A stretch of DNA of 64,000 nt, taken from positions 91,569 to 155,568 of the forward strand of contig CAZVRA010000001.1 of assembly GCA_964630055.1 (NCBI GenBank), given 5' to 3'. A model generated the notes under the pieces. The model worked only from the letters and a program-made list of their open reading frames with translations, made no database searches and had not been told where the DNA came from. The stretch is from an uncultured Candidatus Saccharibacteria bacterium (GTDB taxonomy: Bacteria > Patescibacteriota > Saccharimonadia > Saccharimonadales > CAZVRA01). This document shows, in pieces, positions 8,103 through 62,948 of this stretch (the stretch's first letter is position 1; every line of letters begins with the position of its first letter). A program made the position numbers and the translations under genes.

Positions 8103-10046
8103 ATGGGTAAAATTATCGGAATCGATCTTGGTACAACCAACAGCGCTATGGCGGTTATGCAGTCGGGCAAGGCCGACATTATTGCCAATAGCGAGGGCAA
8201 CCGTACCACGCCTAGCGTGGTGGCCATCAACAAAAATAAGGAGCGCTTGGTGGGTCAAGTTGCTCGCCGCCAACAGGTTACTAACCCAAAAAACACAATT
8301 TACGAGGTCAAGCGTTTAATTGGCCGCCGCTGGGAAGACAAAGAGGTTCAGCGTGACCTCAAGCTGCTAGGCTACGAAATTGTCAAAAGCGGCAGTGGCG
8401 TTAAGGTTAAGATGGGCGGCAAAGAATACAGCCCCGAAGAAATCAGCGCCATGATTTTGGGCAAGCTAAAGGCCGACGCCGAAGCATTTTTGGGCCAAAA
8501 AGTAGACGAGGCAGTCATTACCGTGCCGGCTTATTTTGACGACGCTCAGCGCCAGGCTACCAAAGATGCCGGCAAAATTGCTGGCCTCGAGGTCAAGCGC
8601 ATAATTAACGAGCCAACAGCGGCCGCACTGGCCTACGGCTTAGACAAAGGCAGCAAAAAAGACGAAAAAATCGTTGTCTTTGACCTGGGTGGTGGTACCT
8701 TCGATGTGTCCATTCTGGAGCTAGGTGATGGTGTCTTTGAGGTAAAAAGCACCAATGGCGACACGCATTTGGGTGGTGCCGACTTTGACCGTGTCCTGGT
8801 TAACTACTTCGCCGACGAATTTAAGCGCGAGCAGGGCATAGACATCCGCGAAGACAACGCCGCTATGCAGCGCCTACGTGATGAGGCCGAAAAGGCCAAA
8901 ATTGAGCTTAGCTCTACTAACGAAATCGACATCAATTTGCCATTCTTAACGGCCGACGCCGACGGGCCAAAACACTTTGAGCTTAAGTTGACTCGTGCCA
9001 AGCTAGAAAGTTTGGTTGGCGACCTGGTGGACAAAACCGCTGTGCCATGCGAAAAGGCGCTTAAAGATGCCGGACTAAAAGCCAGCGACATAGATGCAGT
9101 TGTTTTGGTGGGTGGTATGACCCGCATGCCAGCCGTGCAGGCCAAGGTTAAAGAGATATTTGGCAAAGACCCAATGCAGGGCGTTAACCCCGACGAAGTA
9201 GTGGCCATTGGCGCCGCTATTCAGGGTGGCGTGTTGCAGGGCGACGTCAAGGACGTACTGCTGCTAGACGTCACCCCACTGAGCCTAGGTATAGAAACTT
9301 TGGGCGGTGTGGCAACCAAGCTAATCGAGCGCAACACGACTATTCCGACCAGTAAATCCGAGGTCTTTAGTACAGCCGCCGACAACCAGAACCAGGTAGA
9401 AATTCATGTTGTCCAGGGCGAGCGCGAATTTGTGACAGACAACAAGTCGCTTGGTCGGTTTGTGCTAGACGGCATTCCTCCAGCTCCGCGCGGTGTGCCT
9501 CAGATCGAAGTTACCTTTAACATCGACGCCAACGGTATTTTAAACGTTACCGCCAAGGACAAGGGCACTAGCAAGGAACAAAGCATTACTATCCAAAATA
9601 GTGGCAACCTAGACAAGTCCGAGGTCGAGAAAATGGCCAAAGAAGCCGAGACTCATGCCGAAGAAGACAAGAAAAAACGCGAGGCAATCGATGCTCGCAA
9701 CCAGCTAGACAGCGCTATTTACCAAGCCGAAAAAATGAAGTCCGACAACAAAGATAAGCTGGACGAAGCCGACGTTAAAAAGTTGGACGAAGCCGTCGAA
9801 ACTGCCAAAAAGGCAGCTGGCGACGAAGCCGCCGACAAAGATACGTTGGAGGCCGCAGCCAAGGCGCTAACAGAGGCAATTATGCCAATTGGTGCCAAAA
9901 TGTACGAAGCTGCCAGTAAAGCCGAAGAAGCCGCCGAGGCCGCCAAAGAAAAAGACCAAAAATCCGACAGCGACTCAGGCTCAAAGGCTAAAAGTAAAGA
10001 CAAGGACGAGCCAGTCGAAGGCGAAGTGGTAGACGAATCCAAATAA
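8103..10046 (+). CDS. dnaK: chaperone DnaK (Hsp70)
   Basis: [48 protein letters not shown] upstream. Confidence 0.98.
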
Positions 10047-10071
10047 ATTGTCTTTCTGCCGCGACGCTAAA

Positions 10072-10106
10072 AAAAGCCGCCCCAAATCCGGGCGGCTTTT
10101 GCTTTT
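10072..10106 (+). terminator. rho-independent terminator after dnaK
   Basis: AAAAGCCGCCC-caaatcc-GGGCGGCTTTT followed by GCTTTT. Confidence 0.8.
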
Positions 10107-10175
10107 AGGGCCAATCACATGCCCGGTATATGCTATACTGAATAAAGTTATAAGCATAAACACAGTTGGATTTAT

Positions 10176-13070
10176 ATGCTGACTAAGGGCTTTTATAGGA
10201 TTAGGGTAGATAAGCTAGCAAAAATAACTCTGGCTGGTGTTTTTTTGTTTGGCGTTGTACTAGGTTCTTTGAGCAATTTGGTTTGGACGGCCGCCAGGCC
10301 AAAACTCGCAAAGGCCCAGTCAGCCCAGCCGACCCTGCCACGGCTTCAGTTAACAGAACTAGGTACTCACCCCCAAGCGGCGGCTCAGCCAACTACCGAT
10401 GGCAAAAGCATTAACAGCCTCAAGGTTTTTGACGGCAAGCTTTTTGCTGGTTATGGCGACTACCAAAACAACACTGGGCCAATTATCATAAACCCTTTTA
10501 ACCTAAGTACTAATACTTTTGAGGGCCAGGCCCTAAGCGTGCCCAGCGAAGCGATTGGCAACTGGACGGTTATAAACGGCAGCCTTTATGCAACTACAAT
10601 TGATCCTAATTGTTCCAAAACCTGCCCTGCCGGCTATGCCAAATACACGCCGGGCGGGAGTTGGTCCATGCAAACACCAATCAATGCCGAGCACGTCTTT
10701 GCTATGGCTAGCTTAAACGGTAGCGATTTGTGGCTTTTTGGATCTGCCGGTGGCTACACTTCTACCGCTTGGCGGAGTACCGATGGTGGCAGCACTTGGG
10801 CGGTGGTTCGCACCTATGCCAACGAATCATCGAGTAATCTAGAGCGTTATTACTGGGGCATTGCTACCGGCGGCAAAATGTATATGCAATCAAACTTGTA
10901 CGGATTTCAAAACCCAGTCGAGGCGTTTGACGGCACAAATTGGACCTCTAACACATCGGTGCCAGCATTGTGCGATACAGGCACTGCCGGCAGGGGGCCA
11001 TCGATAATTGTTCACCAGTCTAAAATAATTTGCGCTGGTAGCTCATGGAACCAAGCCCAGGCAATGGTGTATGATGGCAGCACGGCAACACAGCTTGATA
11101 TCAACAGTTCTGTTTGCGGCAATTCTGTTTATATGCTGCAAGAAGCTGATGGCTATGTTTATGCACTCTGTCGGTCCTGGTATGACCAGAATTACTCAGA
11201 CAGAGCTTCTAAGATTATGGATTCGCGCATAATCCGCAGCAAAGATTTAAATAACTGGCAAACAATAACCACCTTTGACAGTAATTTAATGAACAGTAAT
11301 TTTACCATCGAATCATTCGCCATAGATGGCTCGACGCTCTATGTGGGCGATAATAATTCCAAAATATATAAAACTACCTTTGACGCTGGCGCCGACACTA
11401 CACCGCCCACGGGCAGCGTAACTACCTCGGCCAAAAATGGCCTGGCCGAAGGATCGTTTACAATGAGTGTTGACGCCAACGATGCCAAAGGTGATGTTTA
11501 CGTTGAGTATTACATTAATGGGGTTGTTCAGCCGATGCCATATAGTTATCGGCCTACCAACGGTGGAAACAACACTGCTACTAACAAAGACTATTATTCG
11601 CCATTTACTTTTGACATAACTAACCGTTATTTGCAAAACGATTGGCAGTACCCACCCGACAAAAACCTGGTATTAACCGCCAAAATTACCGATGGCAGTG
11701 GCAATACCACCACTACTCAGCCGGTCACGGTTCACTTTGCCAAGCCAGACATCAATGTGAGTTCGCTAACTACAAGTGGTATAAATTTAGGCGCGCCTAT
11801 GGCGACCGACCAAGCCGGCAACATTTGGACTCCAGACATCAATCCCTTTGTTAGCGAAGAGTTACTTGGTTTTATAAAAGTCGACCCGGCAACCGGCGTT
11901 ACTACAAAATATCCGTTTGCTTCTTCGCACCCCAGCTATGCATATGTTTATGATGGTGGTTTTACAGTAGACAAAACAGGCCATATTTGGTTTGTGGATT
12001 GTCGAAGTAGCCAGCTGCACAAGTTTAACCCCCAAACAAAAGCCGAAGTTGTTAGCGACCTGCCGTTTAGTGTTTGTACCGATTCAGGTACCCAAATGGT
12101 GCTTGGAAGCGGCTCCGACATGCTGATACTAAAGCGAGGTAGCGACCAAATTGTTCGGGTCAATATAGAAACCGGTGCTTTGTCGCGCCAAGATATACCC
12201 AGCAATTATTTAGTTACAACATTGGAGCCAGACAATAGCGGCCAGTTTATGGCGGCTTATGCTACCGGCCAACCAGGCAGTGGCAGTAGCGTAGATGTCG
12301 GCTTAGCCAATATTAATGCTGCTGGGGTGTTTTCGTCCTTTTACGAAGAACCTTACGATGCTAATTCTATTTTGGGTAATGTGTGGTCTATCATTAAAGA
12401 CCAAGCTGGCAATATTTGGATAAGCAGCGATACCGAGCGCCAGACCGATGGACCGCTAATATCTGTGCTGACCGTTTCTGGCCAAAAAAAGACCTTTGGC
12501 ACAGTGCTGGGTGGGAGTTATGGTCATTCGGCTAGGTTGCATTTTACGCCTTCGGGCATGTTGGTCGGGCAAACTGCCGACGGTGCCGTAGTAATAATTG
12601 ACCCAGGCACAGGTAATATAAAGAAGCATTATGTTTTAAGTACGGTGCTGCCGGGTGGAGAAGTCATTGCTTACCCTGGAATGTTTTCCTCATTGGTCAT
12701 AGACAAACAGGGGGTCATGTGGGTTAATGATATTATTGGACAGCGGCTAGTTAAGATTTCGGTATTGTCGGCTGCCACCGGCTCGGTCAATGCCCTGGTC
12801 GACGGCGCGGCCAGTAGTAACGGCTCGCTACTTGCCACCACTGGGGCTTATCTTTTGGCAACTCCTCTGGTGGCGATTGTTTTGGGCACCATAGCCTACA
12901 CATTTTTTGACTACCGGCGCTGCAAGCGAGGCCTGTCCGGCAGCCCCGGCTCGGAGGCCTATACCTACAGGCACCACTTGCAGGTGGTTAGTTTTCCGCT
13001 GTTTAGATACAGGCTGGTGTTGGCTTTTGACAAAATTGTCAAAACTAACGGCAAAATATCGCGCTACTAG
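10176..13070 (+). CDS. very large surface protein (964 aa) with BNR/Asp-box, Ig-like and beta-propeller-type repeats and an LAxTG-like C-terminal signal
   Basis: N-terminal anchor ITLAGVFLFGVVLGS. Asp-box STDGGSTW. Repeated DQAGNIW / DKTGHIW / DKQGVMW blades. C-terminus LLATTG + hydrophobic AYLLATPLVAIVLGTIAYTFF + DYRRCKR. Confidence 0.7.
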   Translation: MLTKGFYRIRVDKLAKITLAGVFLFGVVLGSLSNLVWTAARPKLAKAQSAQPTLPRLQLTELGTHPQAAAQPTTDGKSINSLKVFDGKLFAGYGDYQNNTGPIIINPFNLSTNTFEGQALSVPSEAIGNWTVINGSLYATTIDPNCSKTCPAGYAKYTPGGSWSMQTPINAEHVFAMASLNGSDLWLFGSAGGYTSTAWRSTDGGSTWAVVRTYANESSSNLERYYWGIATGGKMYMQSNLYGFQNPVEAFDGTNWTSNTSVPALCDTGTAGRGPSIIVHQSKIICAGSSWNQAQAMVYDGSTATQLDINSSVCGNSVYMLQEADGYVYALCRSWYDQNYSDRASKIMDSRIIRSKDLNNWQTITTFDSNLMNSNFTIESFAIDGSTLYVGDNNSKIYKTTFDAGADTTPPTGSVTTSAKNGLAEGSFTMSVDANDAKGDVYVEYYINGVVQPMPYSYRPTNGGNNTATNKDYYSPFTFDITNRYLQNDWQYPPDKNLVLTAKITDGSGNTTTTQPVTVHFAKPDINVSSLTTSGINLGAPMATDQAGNIWTPDINPFVSEELLGFIKVDPATGVTTKYPFASSHPSYAYVYDGGFTVDKTGHIWFVDCRSSQLHKFNPQTKAEVVSDLPFSVCTDSGTQMVLGSGSDMLILKRGSDQIVRVNIETGALSRQDIPSNYLVTTLEPDNSGQFMAAYATGQPGSGSSVDVGLANINAAGVFSSFYEEPYDANSILGNVWSIIKDQAGNIWISSDTERQTDGPLISVLTVSGQKKTFGTVLGGSYGHSARLHFTPSGMLVGQTADGAVVIIDPGTGNIKKHYVLSTVLPGGEVIAYPGMFSSLVIDKQGVMWVNDIIGQRLVKISVLSAATGSVNALVDGAASSNGSLLATTGAYLLATPLVAIVLGTIAYTFFDYRRCKRGLSGSPGSEAYTYRHHLQVVSFPLFRYRLVLAFDKIVKTNGKISRY

Positions 13071-13111
13071 TTTTCCACAGGTTATTGTTTGCAGACTTGA
13101 CAAGCATAAGC

Positions 13112-13122
13112 GGGGGGGGGGG
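13112..13122. repeat. homopolymeric G11 tract in the intergenic region
   Basis: Eleven consecutive G, counted directly. Flanked by TTGACA (13097-13102) and TAACAT (13123-13128). Confidence 0.95.
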
Positions 13123-13169
13123 TAACATCGAAGAGTACATTAACAGTATGTGTAGGTATCTTAGGGCAG

Positions 13170-13205
13170 AGCAGTTTTGGTTAACTGCTATGCTTTGGTT
13201 TTTTC
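13170..13205 (+). terminator. hairpin plus T-rich tail (candidate terminator of the 10176..13070 gene, or an attenuator)
   Basis: AGCAGTT-ttggtt-AACTGCT, then atgcTTTGGTTTTTT. Confidence 0.5.
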
Positions 13206-13317
13206 CGTAAGTGGCGCCCATTTTGGTCTTATCAGCTTTGGCAAAACATTGTGGTATTTACAACATACAAATAATTTAAGCTTTTATTAAGTAAACAAGG
13301 AAGCAAGGAAACAAAAA

Positions 13318-14931
13318 ATGACAACCAAAAGACCCCAAGCCAAAACAATCTCGGTCCTAGCAGGCGCCATCCGCCGCACTGGCTTTTTGGCCATAGCAAC
13401 CGTCCTATTCGCCTCCGGCCTGGCCGTCCTGGCTCCCGCCAAAAAAGCCAGCGCCGCCGCGTGTGTAAAGAATTATGGTTCTTACGGTGGAAGCTCTGGA
13501 TTCACGCCTTTTCAATTAGTTGGCGGAATTGGCTCATCACTAGACTCTAGCGTTCAATCTTATGATACTGAATTTACGCCAAAAGGAACGGGCTATGCCT
13601 ATAGCATTAGGGCAAGTATTGTTAAATCCGATTGTACTGATCCTGGTCAATCTGTAGATATAAGTATCTACAAGGGGGGCGATGGTACAATTAAAGCTTA
13701 TGCGTATGATGGAAATCGCACAACTCCTTATGCTGCGACTACTGACTATAAGAATATAAATTCGGCTTTTACGCCAAGCCCAAGCGGCAGCACCGGTCTT
13801 AGTTTAAGCTCATCTGCACTTATTAATTCAGATAATAATACAGCAGTCAGATTCCGACTGGATATATCAACTAGCGGCTGGCTTAAGGTTTCGTACTTTG
13901 TAGGCAGTGGAGCAGAGCAAGTCATAGGTGAGTTTGCGATTCCAGCTAGTGCAGTATCGTTCCTTGGTCATGACTATGGTGACTTCAGTTTAGACCTTCA
14001 ACGCAAGGGTGCGACTACCTGTTCTCAGGTAACTGGTAGCGCAAATATGGACGTTAGGGTATTGAGTGGGGGAACCGCCGCAGTGCCCTTAACTATATAC
14101 ACAGCCGACGCCCAGTCTAATATGTATACGTGCTATGCTATGGTTAAATCATCCTTTAACGCTACTTCTAAGGTTGCCACGCTGGCATACGATGTCGCCG
14201 GAGCTAGCGTGCCAAAAGGGGTAAAGAATGATCTTAATGTGCTGTCAGATCCTGGATTACCTTTTGTCTATAGTGCCTCGCTGGAGCTTGGTACCAGTGG
14301 GGATAGCCCGTGGCCGAAACAAGAATTTATTAGCTCAACCTCTGCCGACCAGCAACTCTACTTTTTTGCCCAGAACTATAATGGCAGCAAGACTATGGCG
14401 AAGGGGGTTATTTATCCAATCGCTGGTGGTATTTTTGACATGAGCTCTAGCGATGTTGACCTAAAAGACGTAAAAATGGATGTTGACGGCATGGCATTTA
14501 AGTCCTTGGCGCACAACCTGGGAGCCTTAACAAAAGACAAGACATTTACCTTGTTTGTACCCTATAGGGACGGCGATAAATCGGTTGGGATATGCCCTGG
14601 CGCCAGCACATTAGATACGGTAACCGATAAATGCGACAAGGTTTACTACTTGGCCGACGGTATGACCAAGACCAGTGCAGACAGCAGTACAATTCCTAAA
14701 GGCGTCAATGTTAAAGCCAATAAAGTTAAAATTGGCAATACAAACTTCTGGCGCATAGATGGTCTAAGCGGTACCGGCGGCTTTAGCTCACCAGCCGTGG
14801 CCGCAGCGCCAGCTACTGGTGCGATTCAGCTGATTACTTCTAACCCAATTGTTGCTGGTTTGGCCACTTTGGCGGTTGTAGGGGCCTTGGCGGTTCTGCG
14901 CCGCAAGTATGTGCCGGCAGTTAACAAATAG
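13318..14931 (+). CDS. surface protein (537 aa) with sortase-type C-terminal sorting signal
   Basis: SD AAGGAA 7 nt upstream. N-terminal signal/anchor FLAIATVLFASGLAVLAPAKKASA. C-terminus AAPATG...VAGLATLAVVGALAVL-RRKYVPAVNK (xPxTG + TM + basic tail). Confidence 0.7.
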   Translation: MTTKRPQAKTISVLAGAIRRTGFLAIATVLFASGLAVLAPAKKASAAACVKNYGSYGGSSGFTPFQLVGGIGSSLDSSVQSYDTEFTPKGTGYAYSIRASIVKSDCTDPGQSVDISIYKGGDGTIKAYAYDGNRTTPYAATTDYKNINSAFTPSPSGSTGLSLSSSALINSDNNTAVRFRLDISTSGWLKVSYFVGSGAEQVIGEFAIPASAVSFLGHDYGDFSLDLQRKGATTCSQVTGSANMDVRVLSGGTAAVPLTIYTADAQSNMYTCYAMVKSSFNATSKVATLAYDVAGASVPKGVKNDLNVLSDPGLPFVYSASLELGTSGDSPWPKQEFISSTSADQQLYFFAQNYNGSKTMAKGVIYPIAGGIFDMSSSDVDLKDVKMDVDGMAFKSLAHNLGALTKDKTFTLFVPYRDGDKSVGICPGASTLDTVTDKCDKVYYLADGMTKTSADSSTIPKGVNVKANKVKIGNTNFWRIDGLSGTGGFSSPAVAAAPATGAIQLITSNPIVAGLATLAVVGALAVLRRKYVPAVNK

Positions 14932-15049
14932 TTAGTAGTTTGTGCCGGTTACCAGCTGGCAACCGGCGAGGCAAATTGTTGCCCAAAAATAAAATTCTAA
15001 AACTTTAAAAACCTAAAATTAACACCCAAATTTAAAATCAAAAAATAAA

Positions 15050-16186
15050 ATGCAACCAAGTCGAATATATTTAGATGATGCTGTTTTTGCGTCGCGCCTC
15101 AGGCGGGAATTCCCCCGGCGCCAGTTTGGCGCTGGCGGAGCGCCATACTCTGGCGCCGCCAAGCCGCGGTCCCAACGGTCCTTTAGCTCCGAGCCTTTTG
15201 TTGGCCAGGGTGTTCTGCTGTCGCGACCTTTGCCCGGGACGCCGCCAAAAACTGCGCCTAACCCTTCGCCCAAAGCTGTGGCAGTGGCGTCGGCCCAGAT
15301 GGTAGACGGCATAGTAATGCGTACTCCTTCGGTTGCCCAAACTGCGACCGTCCAACCTGCAACTGCCCAAGGAACAACGAAAAATGTGTTGCAGCCAGGG
15401 CGGACCAATCCGGTTGTTGGTAGGCCACAAATACCCAGTCCGCCGGAATTATCTGTCATGGCCAAGCAATTTGCGCCCCGGGTTGCGCCCCAAAACTCCA
15501 AAACACCGGCCGCATCCACTCCAAAGCAAAAAGGTTGGCGCAAAGTACTGGGACACGCCTTAACCGGCTTTAGTTTACTGGTGCTTATGGCCGGCAGCTA
15601 CGTAGTAACAAGCAGCTATTTTACCAACAAGCACGTGGCGGCTCAGGTTCAGCAGTCATCTAGCCAGCAGGAAGATGCTAACAACAGCTTGCCCTCCGAA
15701 GAACCACCTAGCGAAGACATAGGCAAATATGCTGTTGCGGCCGACATGCCCAAGTTGGTGTCTATCCAAAAGCTGGGGGTCAAGGCGCGAGTTAGGCGCA
15801 TGGGCGTCGACAAAACAGGGGCCATTCAGGCGCCGCGCAATATTTACGACGCCGGCTGGTACGATGGCAGCGCCAAGCCTGGCGAGCCAGGCACAGTTTT
15901 CTTGGATGCTCATGTGTCGGGGCCGACAAAACCTGGGGTTTTTCACGACATCAAAAAACTGGCCGCTGGCGATACCATCACCATAGAAATGGGCGATGGC
16001 AAAACCCACACATATAGCGTGGTCAGCCAAAAGTCCTACCCCAGAGATCAGGTTAACATGCAGGAAGCGCTGGTGTCGGCTAAACCTGGCAAGCGAGCCT
16101 TAAACATGATGACATGTAGTGGCAAGTTCGATTCTAAGACTCAAAGTTATTCCGAGCGCCTAGTTGTCTTTGCGGTAGAGCAATAA
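15050..16186 (+). CDS. sortase (class E/F-like) with ~165-aa Pro-rich N-terminal extension
   Basis: C-terminal domain has His (FLDAHVSG), Cys (LNMMTCSG) and Arg (SERLVVFA). Single TM LTGFSLLVLMAGSYVV. N-terminal part is P/A/Q-rich low complexity. Confidence 0.8.
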   Translation: MQPSRIYLDDAVFASRLRREFPRRQFGAGGAPYSGAAKPRSQRSFSSEPFVGQGVLLSRPLPGTPPKTAPNPSPKAVAVASAQMVDGIVMRTPSVAQTATVQPATAQGTTKNVLQPGRTNPVVGRPQIPSPPELSVMAKQFAPRVAPQNSKTPAASTPKQKGWRKVLGHALTGFSLLVLMAGSYVVTSSYFTNKHVAAQVQQSSSQQEDANNSLPSEEPPSEDIGKYAVAADMPKLVSIQKLGVKARVRRMGVDKTGAIQAPRNIYDAGWYDGSAKPGEPGTVFLDAHVSGPTKPGVFHDIKKLAAGDTITIEMGDGKTHTYSVVSQKSYPRDQVNMQEALVSAKPGKRALNMMTCSGKFDSKTQSYSERLVVFAVEQ

Positions 16187-16201
16187 GCGTGCTATAATTA
16201 C

Positions 16202-16350
16202 AGCCGTTATCAAACCGGTCCAATGAATAAAGCGGCTCAGGGAGCAAGCTATGTTACGTAAACAGCTTGCACCAACCTGAGAAGTTTGGACTTTAAGCCT
16301 AATCACCGCATGGCTGGCATTAAAATGCTGCCTGGGTAAAAAAGACGGCT
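16202..16350 (+). promoter_or_regulatory. structured 5' leader / candidate riboswitch upstream of the transglycosylase lipoprotein gene
   Basis: Starts just after TGcTATAAT (-10 at 16193-16198). Closing stem AGCCGT (16202-07)/ACGGCT (16345-50). Nested stems CTCAGG (16236-41)/CCTGAG (16276-81) and GCAAGCT (16244-50)/AGCTTGC (16264-70). Hairpin GGC..GCAT-taaa-ATGC..GCC (16312-16332). Confidence 0.4.
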
Positions 16351-16437
16351 TACAATCTGATAACCCAACTAATATTAATTGGCCATTTGGCATGTTTTTG
16401 TTGTTTGGCCCTATTTATACAGAAGGGACTGTTTGCT

Positions 16438-17025
16438 ATGTCTATTGAGTCTATGGAACAAGCACCAGCAACAATACAAAATAACGAAATTGCCACTGCG
16501 ACCAATTGGCGACGCGCCGTAGCCGTGGCTGGCCTAGCCACTTCGGCACTTTTGAGCGCTGGTTGCGATGCTAGGGACGTGCCGTTTTTTCGCGAAGCCT
16601 GCGAGCAACAAGGCCAATCGGCGGATACTTGTTACAACCAGTTTAACCAATTAATCCGCCGGGCAAATGCCGTAAATGGCGGGCAGGTTGTTGACCCGGA
16701 TGCTTTTTTTGAGGCCGGTGGCTTAACGCCCGGCGAGGCCAGCGCCGCCAGACAAATTATGACCCCCGAATCTGGCATGTGCGCCTGGAAGGTCCAAGGC
16801 AAGTTTGGCGCTTGTCCACCCGCACCGCCCGCGCCGTCCAGAGTACCGAAGAGTGGCGGTTATGGTTTGTGCCAGTCAACTCCGCCCCAAAAAATGGCTT
16901 CCGCCGGTCCAGACTGGGTCACTAACCCTTACACCCAACTAAAATGGTGCGATTCGTATGTAAAAGGACGCTACGGTGGTTGGTTGCAAGCGTTGGGTTA
17001 TCGCCGTGCCCACGGAAATTTCTAA
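16438..17025 (+). CDS. putative lipoprotein, lytic transglycosylase-like (SLT/IsaA-type C-terminal domain)
   Basis: RRAVAVAGLATSALLSAG|C lipobox-like signal. C-terminal PESG...GGYGLCQSTPPQKM...DWVTNPYTQLKWCDSYVKGRYGGW resembles transglycosylase-like domains. ATG 16438 (AAGGGA upstream) preferred over TTG 16387. Confidence 0.5.
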   Translation: MSIESMEQAPATIQNNEIATATNWRRAVAVAGLATSALLSAGCDARDVPFFREACEQQGQSADTCYNQFNQLIRRANAVNGGQVVDPDAFFEAGGLTPGEASAARQIMTPESGMCAWKVQGKFGACPPAPPAPSRVPKSGGYGLCQSTPPQKMASAGPDWVTNPYTQLKWCDSYVKGRYGGWLQALGYRRAHGNF

Positions 17026-17068
17026 CCTGGTTTGATGCTCGGCGGCTACCTGCGGTATACTAATTTAT

Positions 17069-25229: not shown

Positions 25230-25715
25230 ATGAGGATTATTGGCATCGACCCAGGCACCGGAATTTTGGGTTTTGGAGTAATCGACGTCGAGCCAAGCAG
25301 TAAAATGGTACTGGTTGATGCTGGGGTTATTCGGACGCCTGCCGGTCAGCCAGACGCCGAACGGCTAGCGACTATTTTTGACGAACTTAACCAAATAATT
25401 GATGCCCACAGGCCGGGCGTTATATCGGTCGAAAAGCTGTTTTTTGCGCGTAATGTTACCACCGCCATGACAGTAGCGCAGGCCCGCGGCGTTGTTTTGC
25501 TGCTGGGTCAGCAAAAAAAAATGCAACTGCACGAGTTCACGCCGCTGCAAATTAAGCAAGCTATAACCGGTTATGGTAAGGCCGACAAAAAGCAAGTTCA
25601 GGAAATGGTAAAAGTGCTGCTGGGCCTAAAAAGTATTCCCAAACCCGACGACGCCGCCGATGCTTTGGCGGCTGCCATCTGCTGCGCTTCATCGATAAAA
25701 ATCAATAAAAAATAA
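25230..25715 (+). CDS. ruvC: Holliday junction resolvase RuvC
   Basis: MRIIGIDPGTGILGFGVI, VEKLFF, DAADALAAAIC. Confidence 0.9.
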   Translation: MRIIGIDPGTGILGFGVIDVEPSSKMVLVDAGVIRTPAGQPDAERLATIFDELNQIIDAHRPGVISVEKLFFARNVTTAMTVAQARGVVLLLGQQKKMQLHEFTPLQIKQAITGYGKADKKQVQEMVKVLLGLKSIPKPDDAADALAAAICCASSIKINKK

Positions 25716-34595: not shown

Positions 34596-35330
34596 TTATG
34601 GGTTTTTCTTTGTTGGTGCTGGCGCTGGAGCAGGAGCTGGTGCTGGTGCTGGTGCTGGTGCCGGAGCTGAATTTTTGCTAGGAGTGTTTGTACTTACAGA
34701 GCTTATTGAAACACTAATGTAACCGACATTCATAGCACCTGTAGCATATGTAGACAAGTAGGCACCTGACCCAGCTCTACTGTCGCTCCTAAGGTAGAAG
34801 GAAGGGGTGCATATATTAGTGTAAGAAGAAGAGGATATTGTTACTAGGTTGCCTCTGACGTAACCTTCAGGATTAGTGCCCATATTAGTTGCCTCGACTC
34901 TGGCTTGTGTGCTAGAACCAGACACAGATCTTACATAAGCACATACTTTTACAGGTAGCCCTGCGTTAGCTATGACAAAATCCGCTAACTTAGACTGGCC
35001 ACTACGATTTCTTGTAGAGTCGACGTTGAGAGAGTTCCCTGTTCTCACTACATCTATATTATTTTTCTCTCCTGTGGTTTCACGAATAATCTGGGTCCCT
35101 TGATCTCCTACTATGTCTGCGGGTAATAATTTTAGTTCGGGTGTCGCCGCAAAACTCCTATACACCATCACACCACCACCAATTACGGCAAAGGCTAGAA
35201 CCGTAACTATCAACATAGTCTTTGGTGACCTTGTATTAATCCTAGACAAAAAGCCAAACGTACTCTTTTTGGTATTAGCACTAGAACTAACCTTGGCTCG
35301 GCTAGCTACTTTAGGTTTAGTTACGGGCAT
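34596..35330 (-). CDS. secreted/anchored protein with C-terminal (Ala-Pro)9 repeat
   Basis: N-terminal basic region + TM [18 protein letters not shown]. C-terminus [26 protein letters not shown]. Confidence 0.6.
   Translation of the reverse strand: [244 protein letters not shown]
34614..34667. repeat. hexanucleotide tandem repeat (TGGTGC-type unit, 9 units) encoding (AP)9
   Basis: Codon-by-codon reading of 34614-34667 on the minus strand gives nine Ala-Pro pairs. Central units are identical (tggtgc x4). Confidence 0.9.
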
Positions 35331-50828: not shown

Positions 50829-51398
50829 ATGAATCTCGCCAAACTTCAACAACTTCGTAAAAACCAAAAGGGCTTCACCATCGTTGAGCTCTTGATCGTA
50901 ATCGTCATCATCGTAATCTTGGCCGCTTTGGTGCTCAACACCTTCAACGGTGCCCAAAAGAAGGCCCGTGATGCCAAGCGCGATAGCGACATCAAGGCCA
51001 TAGCTACACAGCTCGAGGCTTGTTACAATGATGACAGTAATACTCAGAGCTGTAATGTGACTGGTAGCTATCCGCTCACGCTAGTTGCTGGTCCGTCTGG
51101 TCTTAAATCTTTAGACCCCAAAGCTCTTAGTGATCCAAAGGGCACTGCTGCAGCTACTGCTACGGCGGCAACAATTGTCACTAGCAGCTGTAATACATCA
51201 TCAGTTGGTGGCTCTTTCTCTGCCACCACCCCAGCTAATTCGGCCACAACATACCAATATGTATACGTTCCATTGACTAGCGCCGGAGGCCCATGTGCTT
51301 CTGGACAAACTCTTTGTACAACAGGTACTTGCGCTAGTTTTGCAATAGTTTACGCAAAAGAAAACGGTGGATCTCAACTAAAAGTCGGTCTTAACTAA
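50829..51398 (+). CDS. pilA: major type IV pilin
   Basis: Leader ...KNQKG|FTIVELLIVIVIIVILAALV (Glu+5). Strong promoter, SD and terminator suggest high expression. Confidence 0.85.
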   Translation: MNLAKLQQLRKNQKGFTIVELLIVIVIIVILAALVLNTFNGAQKKARDAKRDSDIKAIATQLEACYNDDSNTQSCNVTGSYPLTLVAGPSGLKSLDPKALSDPKGTAAATATAATIVTSSCNTSSVGGSFSATTPANSATTYQYVYVPLTSAGGPCASGQTLCTTGTCASFAIVYAKENGGSQLKVGLN

Positions 51399-61457: not shown

Positions 61458-62948
61458 ATGGAACACATTGGTCTTATTTTGAAACGACGCGGACGTCAGC
61501 TCAAATTGTTGGCATTACTTATGCCAACAATATTTTGGAACATTGCTTACGCTAGAACGGTCGTTGCCGAGTCGCCACCGTTAATAATTACTGAGCTACA
61601 AACCGGCACTACCGATAGTGCCACTCAAGAATTTATAGAAATTTATAACTGCTCTGGTAATGATGTGAATCTGTCTAATTGGTTTATACAATATTTCTCA
61701 TCTTCGGCCATAAATCTTGACAAACCGAGCCGCACCATACCGCTTAGTGGCAAATTGCCAGCAGGCACGCATCACCTGGTAGCAAGCAGCAATTACTTAC
61801 AAGACAAGGCTAACGACAGCTTTGCGGCTACTCTTGCCGGAGCCGGTGGGCATGTTCGGCTGGCATTTGTGAATAATGGCACAACCGAAGGTCTGGAGCT
61901 GCTAACTTGGGGAACTACAAAAGCAATGAACTCTAGCGCATTGACGGCCCCACCTGCCGGACAGAGTATTGCTCGTCGTCAAAATTCTGCTTCTGGGCAA
62001 ACTGTTGAATATGCTGTAACTGGCAAGAACGACGCCGATTTTGAATTAAGCACACCTTCACCAGAGGGGCATATTAAGACTCCAGAATTGTCAGACACAA
62101 GCGACGAGGCCGAAGGACCAGCCACAATGCCAGCAACAGACCCAATTGCTGGCTCAGGTGAATCGCCAGTTTCGGACCAGCCTACAAGTACCTCGCCGCC
62201 AGAATATATAAGCTTTCCACAAATTCAGATTACAGAATTACTGCCTAATCCCGCAGCACCACAGACCGATAGCAACGATGAATTCCTAGAGCTTTATAAT
62301 CCAACAGATCAGATTGTGGATTTATCCGGTTGGAAATTACGCTCAGGCTCTACTCTAAGTCATAACTTTACAATAGGTCAGCAGGCTATTGGGCCCCATA
62401 GCTACTTAGCTCTTTATTCATCGCAAACTAAACTTAGCCTAGCCAACAGTGGAGGACGAGCCCAGTTGTTAAATCCCAATGGAGAGGTTTCCGCTGACAC
62501 CATGTCTTATGGGACAGCTCAGCCTGGTCAGTCATGGGCTTGGGACGGAGCAACTTGGGTATGGACAACAGAACCCACTCCCAATGCGGCCAATACAATA
62601 GTCGATCCTGCTAAACCTAAACAGTTGCCAAGTTCGGGCCTGAGTAAAACTACTGCCGCCAAAGCAGTTGCCGGTACTAAAATTACCAAAGCTGCATCTG
62701 CTGGAGTATCTAAAGCGGCTAAAGCCACAACAACCAAAACCGGTACTGCTAAAAAACCGTCTGGCAGCAATAAACCTAACGGTACTGCAGATAGTGGCCA
62801 TGGCAGCTTGCATCCGGCAATCCTTGCAGCGGTGGGAGGTGGTGCGGTAATATACGGAGCATATGAGTACCGACAAGACTTGGCAAATTTGTACCGCAAG
62901 CTCCGCCGACACCGAGGCGTTAGCGCGCCGGGTGGGGCAGCGGCTTAG
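61458..62948 (+). CDS. lamin-tail-domain (LTD) surface protein with C-terminal TM anchor
   Basis: Two LTD signatures, IITELQTG...EFIEIYN...NLSNW and ITELLPNP...EFLELYNPTDQIVDLSGWKL. SD AAAGGAGGG. C-terminal TM ILAAVGGGAVIYGAY. Confidence 0.75.
   Translation: MEHIGLILKRRGRQLKLLALLMPTIFWNIAYARTVVAESPPLIITELQTGTTDSATQEFIEIYNCSGNDVNLSNWFIQYFSSSAINLDKPSRTIPLSGKLPAGTHHLVASSNYLQDKANDSFAATLAGAGGHVRLAFVNNGTTEGLELLTWGTTKAMNSSALTAPPAGQSIARRQNSASGQTVEYAVTGKNDADFELSTPSPEGHIKTPELSDTSDEAEGPATMPATDPIAGSGESPVSDQPTSTSPPEYISFPQIQITELLPNPAAPQTDSNDEFLELYNPTDQIVDLSGWKLRSGSTLSHNFTIGQQAIGPHSYLALYSSQTKLSLANSGGRAQLLNPNGEVSADTMSYGTAQPGQSWAWDGATWVWTTEPTPNAANTIVDPAKPKQLPSSGLSKTTAAKAVAGTKITKAASAGVSKAAKATTTKTGTAKKPSGSNKPNGTADSGHGSLHPAILAAVGGGAVIYGAYEYRQDLANLYRKLRRHRGVSAPGGAAA

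Follow-up and report, generated by a model that had tools for sequence, protein, structure and literature searches.

Between two genes for predicted surface proteins of a Candidatus Saccharibacteria bacterium, we identified a run of eleven guanines (G11) inside the spacer of a sigma70-type promoter-like hexamer pair, which we refer to as P1, and the locus is a plausible candidate for a promoter-spacer phase-variation element in this group. Our interpretation, held with moderate confidence, is that G11 is an expanded G-run in a promoter serving the downstream gene pair (a 537-aa protein and a sortase), the expression of which would be switched by tract length. The element and its neighboring genes in the window, i.e., the whole 64-kb stretch of DNA analyzed here (G+C content of 48%), are as follows.

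10176-13070, plus strand: gene for a 964-aa surface protein with an LATTG signal and its own extended -10 element (TGcTATACT, 10130-10138)
13097-13102, plus strand: -35-like hexamer of P1, TTGACA, read directly; perfect consensus, 7.7 bits with an E. coli-type matrix
13103-13122, plus strand: 20-nt spacer of P1, AGCATAAGCGGGGGGGGGGG, the final 11 nt of which are all G; read directly, it is composed of AGCATAAGC followed by G11
13112-13122, plus strand: G11 homopolymer, candidate slippage tract, from run-length counts
13123-13128, plus strand: -10-like hexamer of P1, TAACAT, 4.3 bits with an E. coli-type matrix, with A2 and T6 kept
13318-14931, plus strand: gene for a 537-aa secreted, sortase-signal surface protein of a rare Saccharibacteria family (APATG-TM-RRK)
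15050-16186, plus strand: gene for a 378-aa sortase, closest to class F (PF04203, 1.6e-21; class F, 3.2e-34, below the cut-off)

The 964-aa ORF ends with a stop codon at 13068-13070 and the 537-aa ORF begins with the ATG at 13318, leaving a gap of 247 nt, for which the first-pass annotation of this DNA had given 248 nt. The tract is located 42 nt past the stop codon and 196 nt ahead of the ATG, and transcription from P1 is predicted to start near 13135. On rereading, the hexamer TTGACA, the 20-nt spacer with its terminal G11 and the hexamer TAACAT were found at exactly the coordinates that had been annotated, and both neighbors are indeed sortase-signal proteins, as had been claimed, with an LATTG signal in the 964-aa product and an APATG signal in the 537-aa product.

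These data raise the question of how unusual such a tract is in this genome. In the 64-kb window, the number of G-runs drops approximately five-fold with each added base (116 runs of G4, 22 of G5 and 3 of G6), runs of 7-10 are absent, and G11 is the sole outlier; it is also the only G or C run of at least 7 nt, the longest C-run being 5 nt. The related Saccharibacteria loci, ~ 170 kb in all, contained one G7 and no longer G/C run. Because the window and these loci are nearly free of them, long G/C runs are avoided in the Saccharibacteria lineage of the window, and G11 stands out. As a mononucleotide run of ~ 8 nt or more that is over-represented for the composition of the genome, G11 is a slippery tract.

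It should also be asked whether the hexamers surrounding the tract could be a chance find. Together, TTGACA and TAACAT score 12.0 bits with a position weight matrix borrowed from E. coli, and in the whole window, both strands included, only 0-4 pairs per spacer length score equally high or higher. The first-pass annotation had stated that the loss of two or three G's would bring the spacer to the optimal 17-18 nt, and the ranking bears this out: with an 18-nt spacer P1 would be 9th, and with a 17-nt spacer 4th, of the ~ 640,000 promoter configurations in the window, while at 20 nt it is outside the usable range. When spacers of 11-25 nt were allowed, 0.28% of the window positions placed an 11-mer wholly inside the spacer of an equally good pair (p = 0.0028). 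The best matches of the E. coli-type matrix in the window are intergenic and situated just ahead of genes, as in the following three cases.

90 nt before dnaK: TTGACA-18-TATACT
40 nt before the gene at 50829: TTGACA-16-TACAAT
25 nt before the gene at 61458: TTGCAA-17-TATACT

The window organism is predicted to use E. coli-like sigma70 promoters.

One additional piece of evidence was provided by relatives of the 537-aa gene. We compared eight distinct loci of this family (L001, L003, L005, L011, L012, L015, L016 and L019; L002 and L003 are identical in DNA despite differing gene calls), and all eight possess a sigma70-like promoter upstream of the family gene, with spacers of either 16 or 17 nt. 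The -35 hexamer is TTGTGT, TTGCGT, TTGTGC or TTGACA (TTCCAA in L019), and the -10 hexamer is TA.A.T-like and ends 23-64 nt before the ATG, with no hairpin between. The TTGACA of P1 aligns with the invariant CTTG of the family promoters, and in an ungapped alignment anchored on this motif, the -10 hexamer of the window is displaced exactly 3 nt downstream relative to those of its relatives. In three of the eight loci (L001, L003 and L011), GGGG occupies spacer positions 11-14; the G-run of the window begins at position 10. The simplest reading of this alignment is that P1 would be the promoter of the 537-aa family, in which a short G-run has grown to G11 and the spacer has lengthened from 17 to 20 nt. 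G/C runs of at least 7 nt are absent from the relatives; therefore, G11 is a lineage-specific state and not a conserved feature. An extended -35 context, GCTTG(T/C)GTTT, is common to L001 (5943-5971), L003 (5920-5948), L005 (1226-1254), L011 and L012, the proteins of which are only ~ 34-39% identical to the 537-aa protein of the window; this context may represent more than a plain -35 hexamer, e.g., a putative regulator site.

The switch that we propose would operate as follows. In the assembled state, with G11 and a 20-nt spacer, P1 would be off or very weak. Replication slippage (slipped-strand mispairing) at G11 would change the distance between the -35 and -10 hexamers, and shortening of the tract by two or three G's, to G9 or G8, would produce an 18- or 17-nt spacer and a strong promoter. 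P1 would thereby range from being among the strongest promoters of the region at G8-G9 to weak at G10 and essentially off at G11, and re-expansion of the tract would turn it down again. The population would be mixed, with heritable and reversible differences in the display of the wall-anchored 537-aa protein. The scheme presumes that RNA polymerase uses the P1 hexamers, that the tract varies in length and that transcription can read through a terminator to reach the gene.

Several features speak against such a switch: a terminator (13161-13205) separates P1 from the 537-aa gene; P1 is 190 nt from the ATG, compared with 23-64 nt in all of the relatives; the assembled spacer is three steps off the optimum, not one; and no long tract is present in any other family member. 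Downstream of P1, the gap contains the following elements.

13161-13205, plus strand: intrinsic-terminator-like hairpin and U-run; dG of -17.8 kcal/mol, z of -3.2 versus shuffles
13249-13277, plus strand: P2, a second, weak promoter-like site at 40 nt from the ATG, TTGTGG-N17-TAATTT
13297-13310, plus strand: two AAGGAA Shine-Dalgarno-like motifs, read directly, ahead of the ATG at 13318

The first-pass annotation had cautioned that a hairpin and T-run intervene, and this obstacle is both real and serious. The stem extends over 13161-13198, with a core at 13166-13193 formed by 11-nt arms (13166-13176 and 13183-13193) that are 91% complementary, and the U-run continues to 13205. The whole structure starts ~ 26 nt past the predicted P1 start and spans 26-70 nt downstream of it; it is one of ~ 4 intergenic sites in the window that combine a hairpin with a T-run and is similar to the dnaK terminator. 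From the terminator up to the ATG at 13318, a scan with the E. coli-type matrix detected no promoter better than chance: P2 scores 4.8 bits (rank 2331 in the window), and TTGGCA-17-CAACAT, also downstream of the terminator, scores 7.3 bits, both at the chance level. P2 is of the family type in its -35 hexamer (TTGTGG versus TTGTGT), in its 17-nt spacer and in its distance to the ATG, and on these grounds it is retained as a putative promoter. Since P1 is behind a terminator and the downstream sites are at the chance level, the 537-aa gene must, on sequence grounds, be served by read-through, either from P1 or from the 964-aa gene, or else by weak P2. The terminator could also be part of the device: P1, tuned by slippage between G8 and G11, would then fire into a terminator ~ 26 nt on, yielding a phase-varied ~ 70-nt RNA (13135-13205) or a phase-varied input to an attenuator that controls the surface-protein and sortase operon. 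We consider this elaboration quite improbable; if this two-tier promoter/terminator reading were true, the Candidate Phyla Radiation (CPR) would gain its first described contingency locus, and an unusual one.

The same features bear on an alternative that we consider unlikely, namely, one-way decay, in which expansion of the G-run disabled the ancestral family promoter and left a relic upstream of the terminator of the 964-aa gene, the tract being a neutral product of slippage and the 537-aa gene being silent or expressed at a low level via weak P2 or read-through. A spacer that is 3 nt too long, and not 1 nt, a terminator between P1 and the 537-aa gene, a downstream P2 with the -35 type, spacer and ATG distance of the family, and the absence of a long tract from every other family member are all consistent with decay. 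However, the score of P2 is no better than chance, and both P1 hexamers are intact, perfect TTGACA included, which would be unexpected for a decaying relic; moreover, given the strong avoidance of G/C runs elsewhere in this genome, the survival of G11 points to a recent origin or to maintenance.

Improbable, in our view, is a coincidence within the 3' UTR, whereby the tract and the hexamers would simply be part of the untranslated tail of the 964-aa gene and would have no promoter function. With the stop codon at 13070 before it and the hairpin and U-run at 13161-13205 after it, the element has a 3' UTR layout, and by a positional rule used for Bordetella, a tract that precedes the start codon by more than 150 nt is unlikely to overlap a promoter, so that G11 would be a weak candidate (PMC1891110). 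The hexamers and the related promoters point the other way: the chance of such hexamers occurring around the tract is ~ 0.003, and the architecture is that of the eight related promoters, including the position of the G-run. In addition, a neutral G11 would be unexpected where no other G/C run in the 64-kb window exceeds 6 nt.

A further question is whether the length of the tract could be an error of assembly, in which case the true tract would be shorter (e.g., G8-G9) and P1 an ordinary constitutive promoter, or G11 would be an arbitrary consensus length. Database lengths of G tracts are unreliable (PMC9187656): in B. breve, the RefSeq G11 proved to be 37% G11 and 60% G12, and G tracts degrade Illumina reads (PMC9187656). 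We nevertheless regard this explanation as very unlikely. The tract is interior to a 292-kb contig with continuous and sensible flanks, it is shorter than the assembly k-mers, which rules out a spurious join, and a three-base miscall exceeds the typical short-read error; a miscall would, moreover, leave the intrinsic instability of a long tract in place. An assembly artefact is unlikely, but the exact length of G11 is nonetheless not to be trusted. As for close strains, single-sequence and family-profile searches of the protein collection returned no protein with more than 38% identity to the 537-aa product; with DnaK as an anchor, the nearest match was 88% identical, and no closer strain was present in the collections. 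The exact-flank DNA pattern gave 0 matches in metagenome contigs, and scans for related loci in genome and metagenome contigs retrieved distant relatives only. Variation in the length of G11 is predicted solely because G tracts of at least 9 nt are known to be unstable.

The least likely explanation is a short RNA (~ 70 nt) or an attenuating leader made from P1 and the terminator, with the tract phase-varying an sRNA or a premature-termination checkpoint: a strong promoter-like pair followed after ~ 26 nt by a good terminator does have the layout of an sRNA or attenuator, but there is no Rfam match, no copy or homologue is present in any related locus compared, 13060-13320 folded in its entirety does not outperform its shuffles (z of +0.31), and a 20-codon ORF that crosses the terminator (13149-13211, with its ATG at 13149 ~ 14 nt from the predicted P1 start) has no Shine-Dalgarno sequence on direct reading.

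Several other candidates were considered and rejected. In the six-frame translation around the tract, no ORFs were joinable across G11, which excludes a coding-frame switch, and all three frames after G11 reach stop codons within ~ 32 codons; because no ORF is fusable across the tract, any effect of the tract must be transcriptional. A role on the minus strand was rejected, as no minus-strand gene is located nearby; the 91-aa minus-strand ORF at 12828-13103, which overlaps the 964-aa gene, is probably spurious. A repeat or mobile element was rejected because the 247-nt gap is unique sequence, occurring once in the window and in none of the related loci compared. A known structured RNA (riboswitch, leader or sRNA family) was rejected for want of a match to a curated covariance model: the region 12500-13800 has no Rfam match at E<=1, and in the whole window just three tRNAs reach the gathering score. 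Short inverted repeats are not enriched in 12850-13330, 8% of the window tiles holding as many, and Tandem Repeats Finder reported a AAGGAAAC repeat at 13289-13314.

How does the proposed switch compare with known systems? In Mycoplasma hyorhinis, a poly-A tract is located in the -35/-10 spacer of the vlp surface lipoprotein genes, which are ON at 17 nt and OFF when the spacer is longer, and this species resembles the window organism in being a reduced-genome, host-dependent bacterium; the difference is that the vlp tract is A/T and belongs to a multigene family with several switches, whereas the window has a G tract at a single locus. The first-pass annotation had invoked the porA and fim systems, and this analogy is apt as far as the mechanism is concerned but carries no evidence of membership. 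Poly-G/C tracts in promoter spacers (porA, fetA) or in promoters (fim) are well-documented switches (PMC5320596, PMC1891110). According to PMC5320596 (citing van der Ende 1995 and Carson 2000), tracts in the -35/-10 spacers of Neisseria porA (poly-G) and fetA/frpB (poly-C) set transcription by their length. The likeness to porA and fetA is that a G/C homopolymer (~ 10-14 nt there) lies inside a sigma70 spacer ahead of a surface-protein gene (PMC5320596). The Neisseria tract fills most of the spacer, common alleles are at or one step from the optimum, the promoter is near the gene with no terminator between, and both length polymorphism and an effect on expression are demonstrated; in contrast, the window has a spacer that is 3 nt too long and an intervening terminator.

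In Bordetella fimX, a single-base change in the C-stretch leads to a 3.8-fold change in transcript (PMC1891110). Here, the likeness is to fim2, fim3 and fimX, where a homopolymer in the promoter of a surface-appendage gene gives transcription that is graded with length (PMC1891110). However, the Bordetella C-stretch spaces the BvgA activator site from the -10 hexamer and is not a plain -35/-10 spacer, and no activator is known for P1. In Bifidobacterium, G10-G12 tracts switch sortase-dependent pilus loci, and their lengths are heterogeneous in culture (PMC9187656). The tract of Bifidobacterium breve and longum has the same length as that of the window (G11 in RefSeq) and belongs to a sortase-linked surface locus of a Gram-positive-type host-associated bacterium, in which slippage demonstrably produces tracts of mixed length and turns expression on or off (PMC9187656). 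However, the Bifidobacterium tract is intragenic and acts by reading frame, while the window tract is outside ORFs; an intragenic frameshift switch of this type was rejected since the tract is located between ORFs with nothing fusable. The Pam pilus of CPR bacteria is assembled by donor-strand exchange and is not sortase-based (bioRxiv 10.64898/2026.03.03.709456), and a relation of this pilus to the window locus was rejected on this account.

The product of the downstream gene has the characteristics of a surface protein that a promoter-spacer switch would be expected to control. The 537-aa protein possesses an N-terminal signal/TM segment and a C-terminal PxTG-type signal (APATG), followed by a TM segment and a basic tail (RRK), and a sortase is encoded next to it; the P, T and G of the PxTG motif are invariant across the family. 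Surface functions such as a sortase substrate and its sortase are usual targets of phase variation. No Pfam or NCBIfam match was obtained for the 537-aa protein. The family is small: a word-indexed search of 5.8 billion proteins yielded three members, and an exhaustive HMMER search of 1.84 billion proteins yielded ~ 25 full-length representatives. The AF2 model, built from a 3-sequence alignment, had a pLDDT of 38.5 and was unusable; the 537-aa protein is a predicted sortase substrate. The sortase gene and the 537-aa gene probably share a transcript. The gap between them (14932-15049) showed neither a terminator nor a promoter, and a sortase gene also adjoins the family gene in L001, L002/L003, L012 and L015. 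An extended -10 element, TGcTATAAT, is present after the sortase gene. The C-terminal ~ 150 aa of the 537-aa protein (14380-14931), ending in the PxTG signal, recur in more than 200 proteins, the larger of which, among those scanned, contain beta-propeller (DUF5122, SBBP, NHL) or DUF285 repeats; this module seems to represent a domain for wall anchoring, or a stalk, that is missing from the catalogues.

Saccharibacteria are ultrasmall episymbionts obliged to attach to a host bacterium, and to our knowledge, how they vary their surface is largely undescribed. In full-text literature searches, phase variation through simple sequence repeats was found neither for Saccharibacteria nor for other CPR bacteria, and the closest case was a hypervariable in-frame repeat gene in a Gracilibacterium. 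If the proposed switch is real, stochastic surface variation, which as far as we know has been described mainly from mucosal pathogens and gut commensals, would exist in a ~ 1-Mb genome living on other bacteria, and the 537-aa family would stand out as a candidate for host contact or for a phage receptor. The mechanism would be a textbook one in a new host lineage, and the gain would thus be taxonomic and ecological, not conceptual.

The genes surrounding the element are arranged in the order dnaK, 964-aa gene, 537-aa gene, sortase, a gene for a 212-aa protein with an aggregation-promoting-factor C-terminal domain, VKOR and dnaJ. The gene content of the window (MurJ, LepA, PilB-type ATPase, ComEC, sortase and VKOR) is consistent with a Gram-positive-type CPR chromosome, and the loci of the 537-aa family relatives are located on contigs of 0.94-1.13 Mb. 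Many DnaKs from MAGs share 84-88% identity with the DnaK of the window (8103-10046), the named matches being Candidatus Saccharibacteria bacterium (87%), Candidatus Limnocylindria (86%) and Patescibacteria group (84%). The stretch from dnaK to VKOR/dnaJ (10047-17068 in the window) contains unrelated surface-protein genes in different Saccharibacteria: in L006 (11911-17603), it encodes Big_7/dockerin proteins, and in L007 (11915-13259), a 295-aa unknown protein and CutA1. Because these two relatives carry quite different surface-protein genes there, the cluster occupies a variable island inside the heat-shock gene cluster.

Just after dnaK, between an A-run and a T-run, a hairpin, GCCGCCCCAAATCCGGGCGGC, is present at 10076-10105; it looks like a bidirectional intrinsic terminator, and it separates dnaK from the 964-aa gene. 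No -35 hexamer was recognizable for the extended -10 promoter of the latter gene (10130-10138). The 964-aa protein has a signal-anchor N-terminus and an LATTG + TM + RRCKRG sorting signal, and a propeller repeat, Reg_prop, was its one faint Pfam match (E 4e-05). Oddly, the ORF continues for 45 codons beyond the sorting signal (12936-13070). This tail, which may be former intergenic or regulatory DNA, includes, at 12973-12988, a hairpin resembling a terminator and, at 13025-13044, a perfect 9+9 palindrome, TTTTGACAA-aa-TTGTCAAAA, ~ 55 nt upstream of the -35 hexamer of P1; the palindrome may be a putative operator. Elsewhere in the window, the longest A/T homopolymer is an A9 run (25513-25521) inside the ORF at 25230-25715, and an in-frame hexanucleotide repeat, TGGTGC x9.3 (34614-34669), in the minus-strand ORF at 34596-35330 (244 aa, no Pfam match) is potentially another length-variable repeat.
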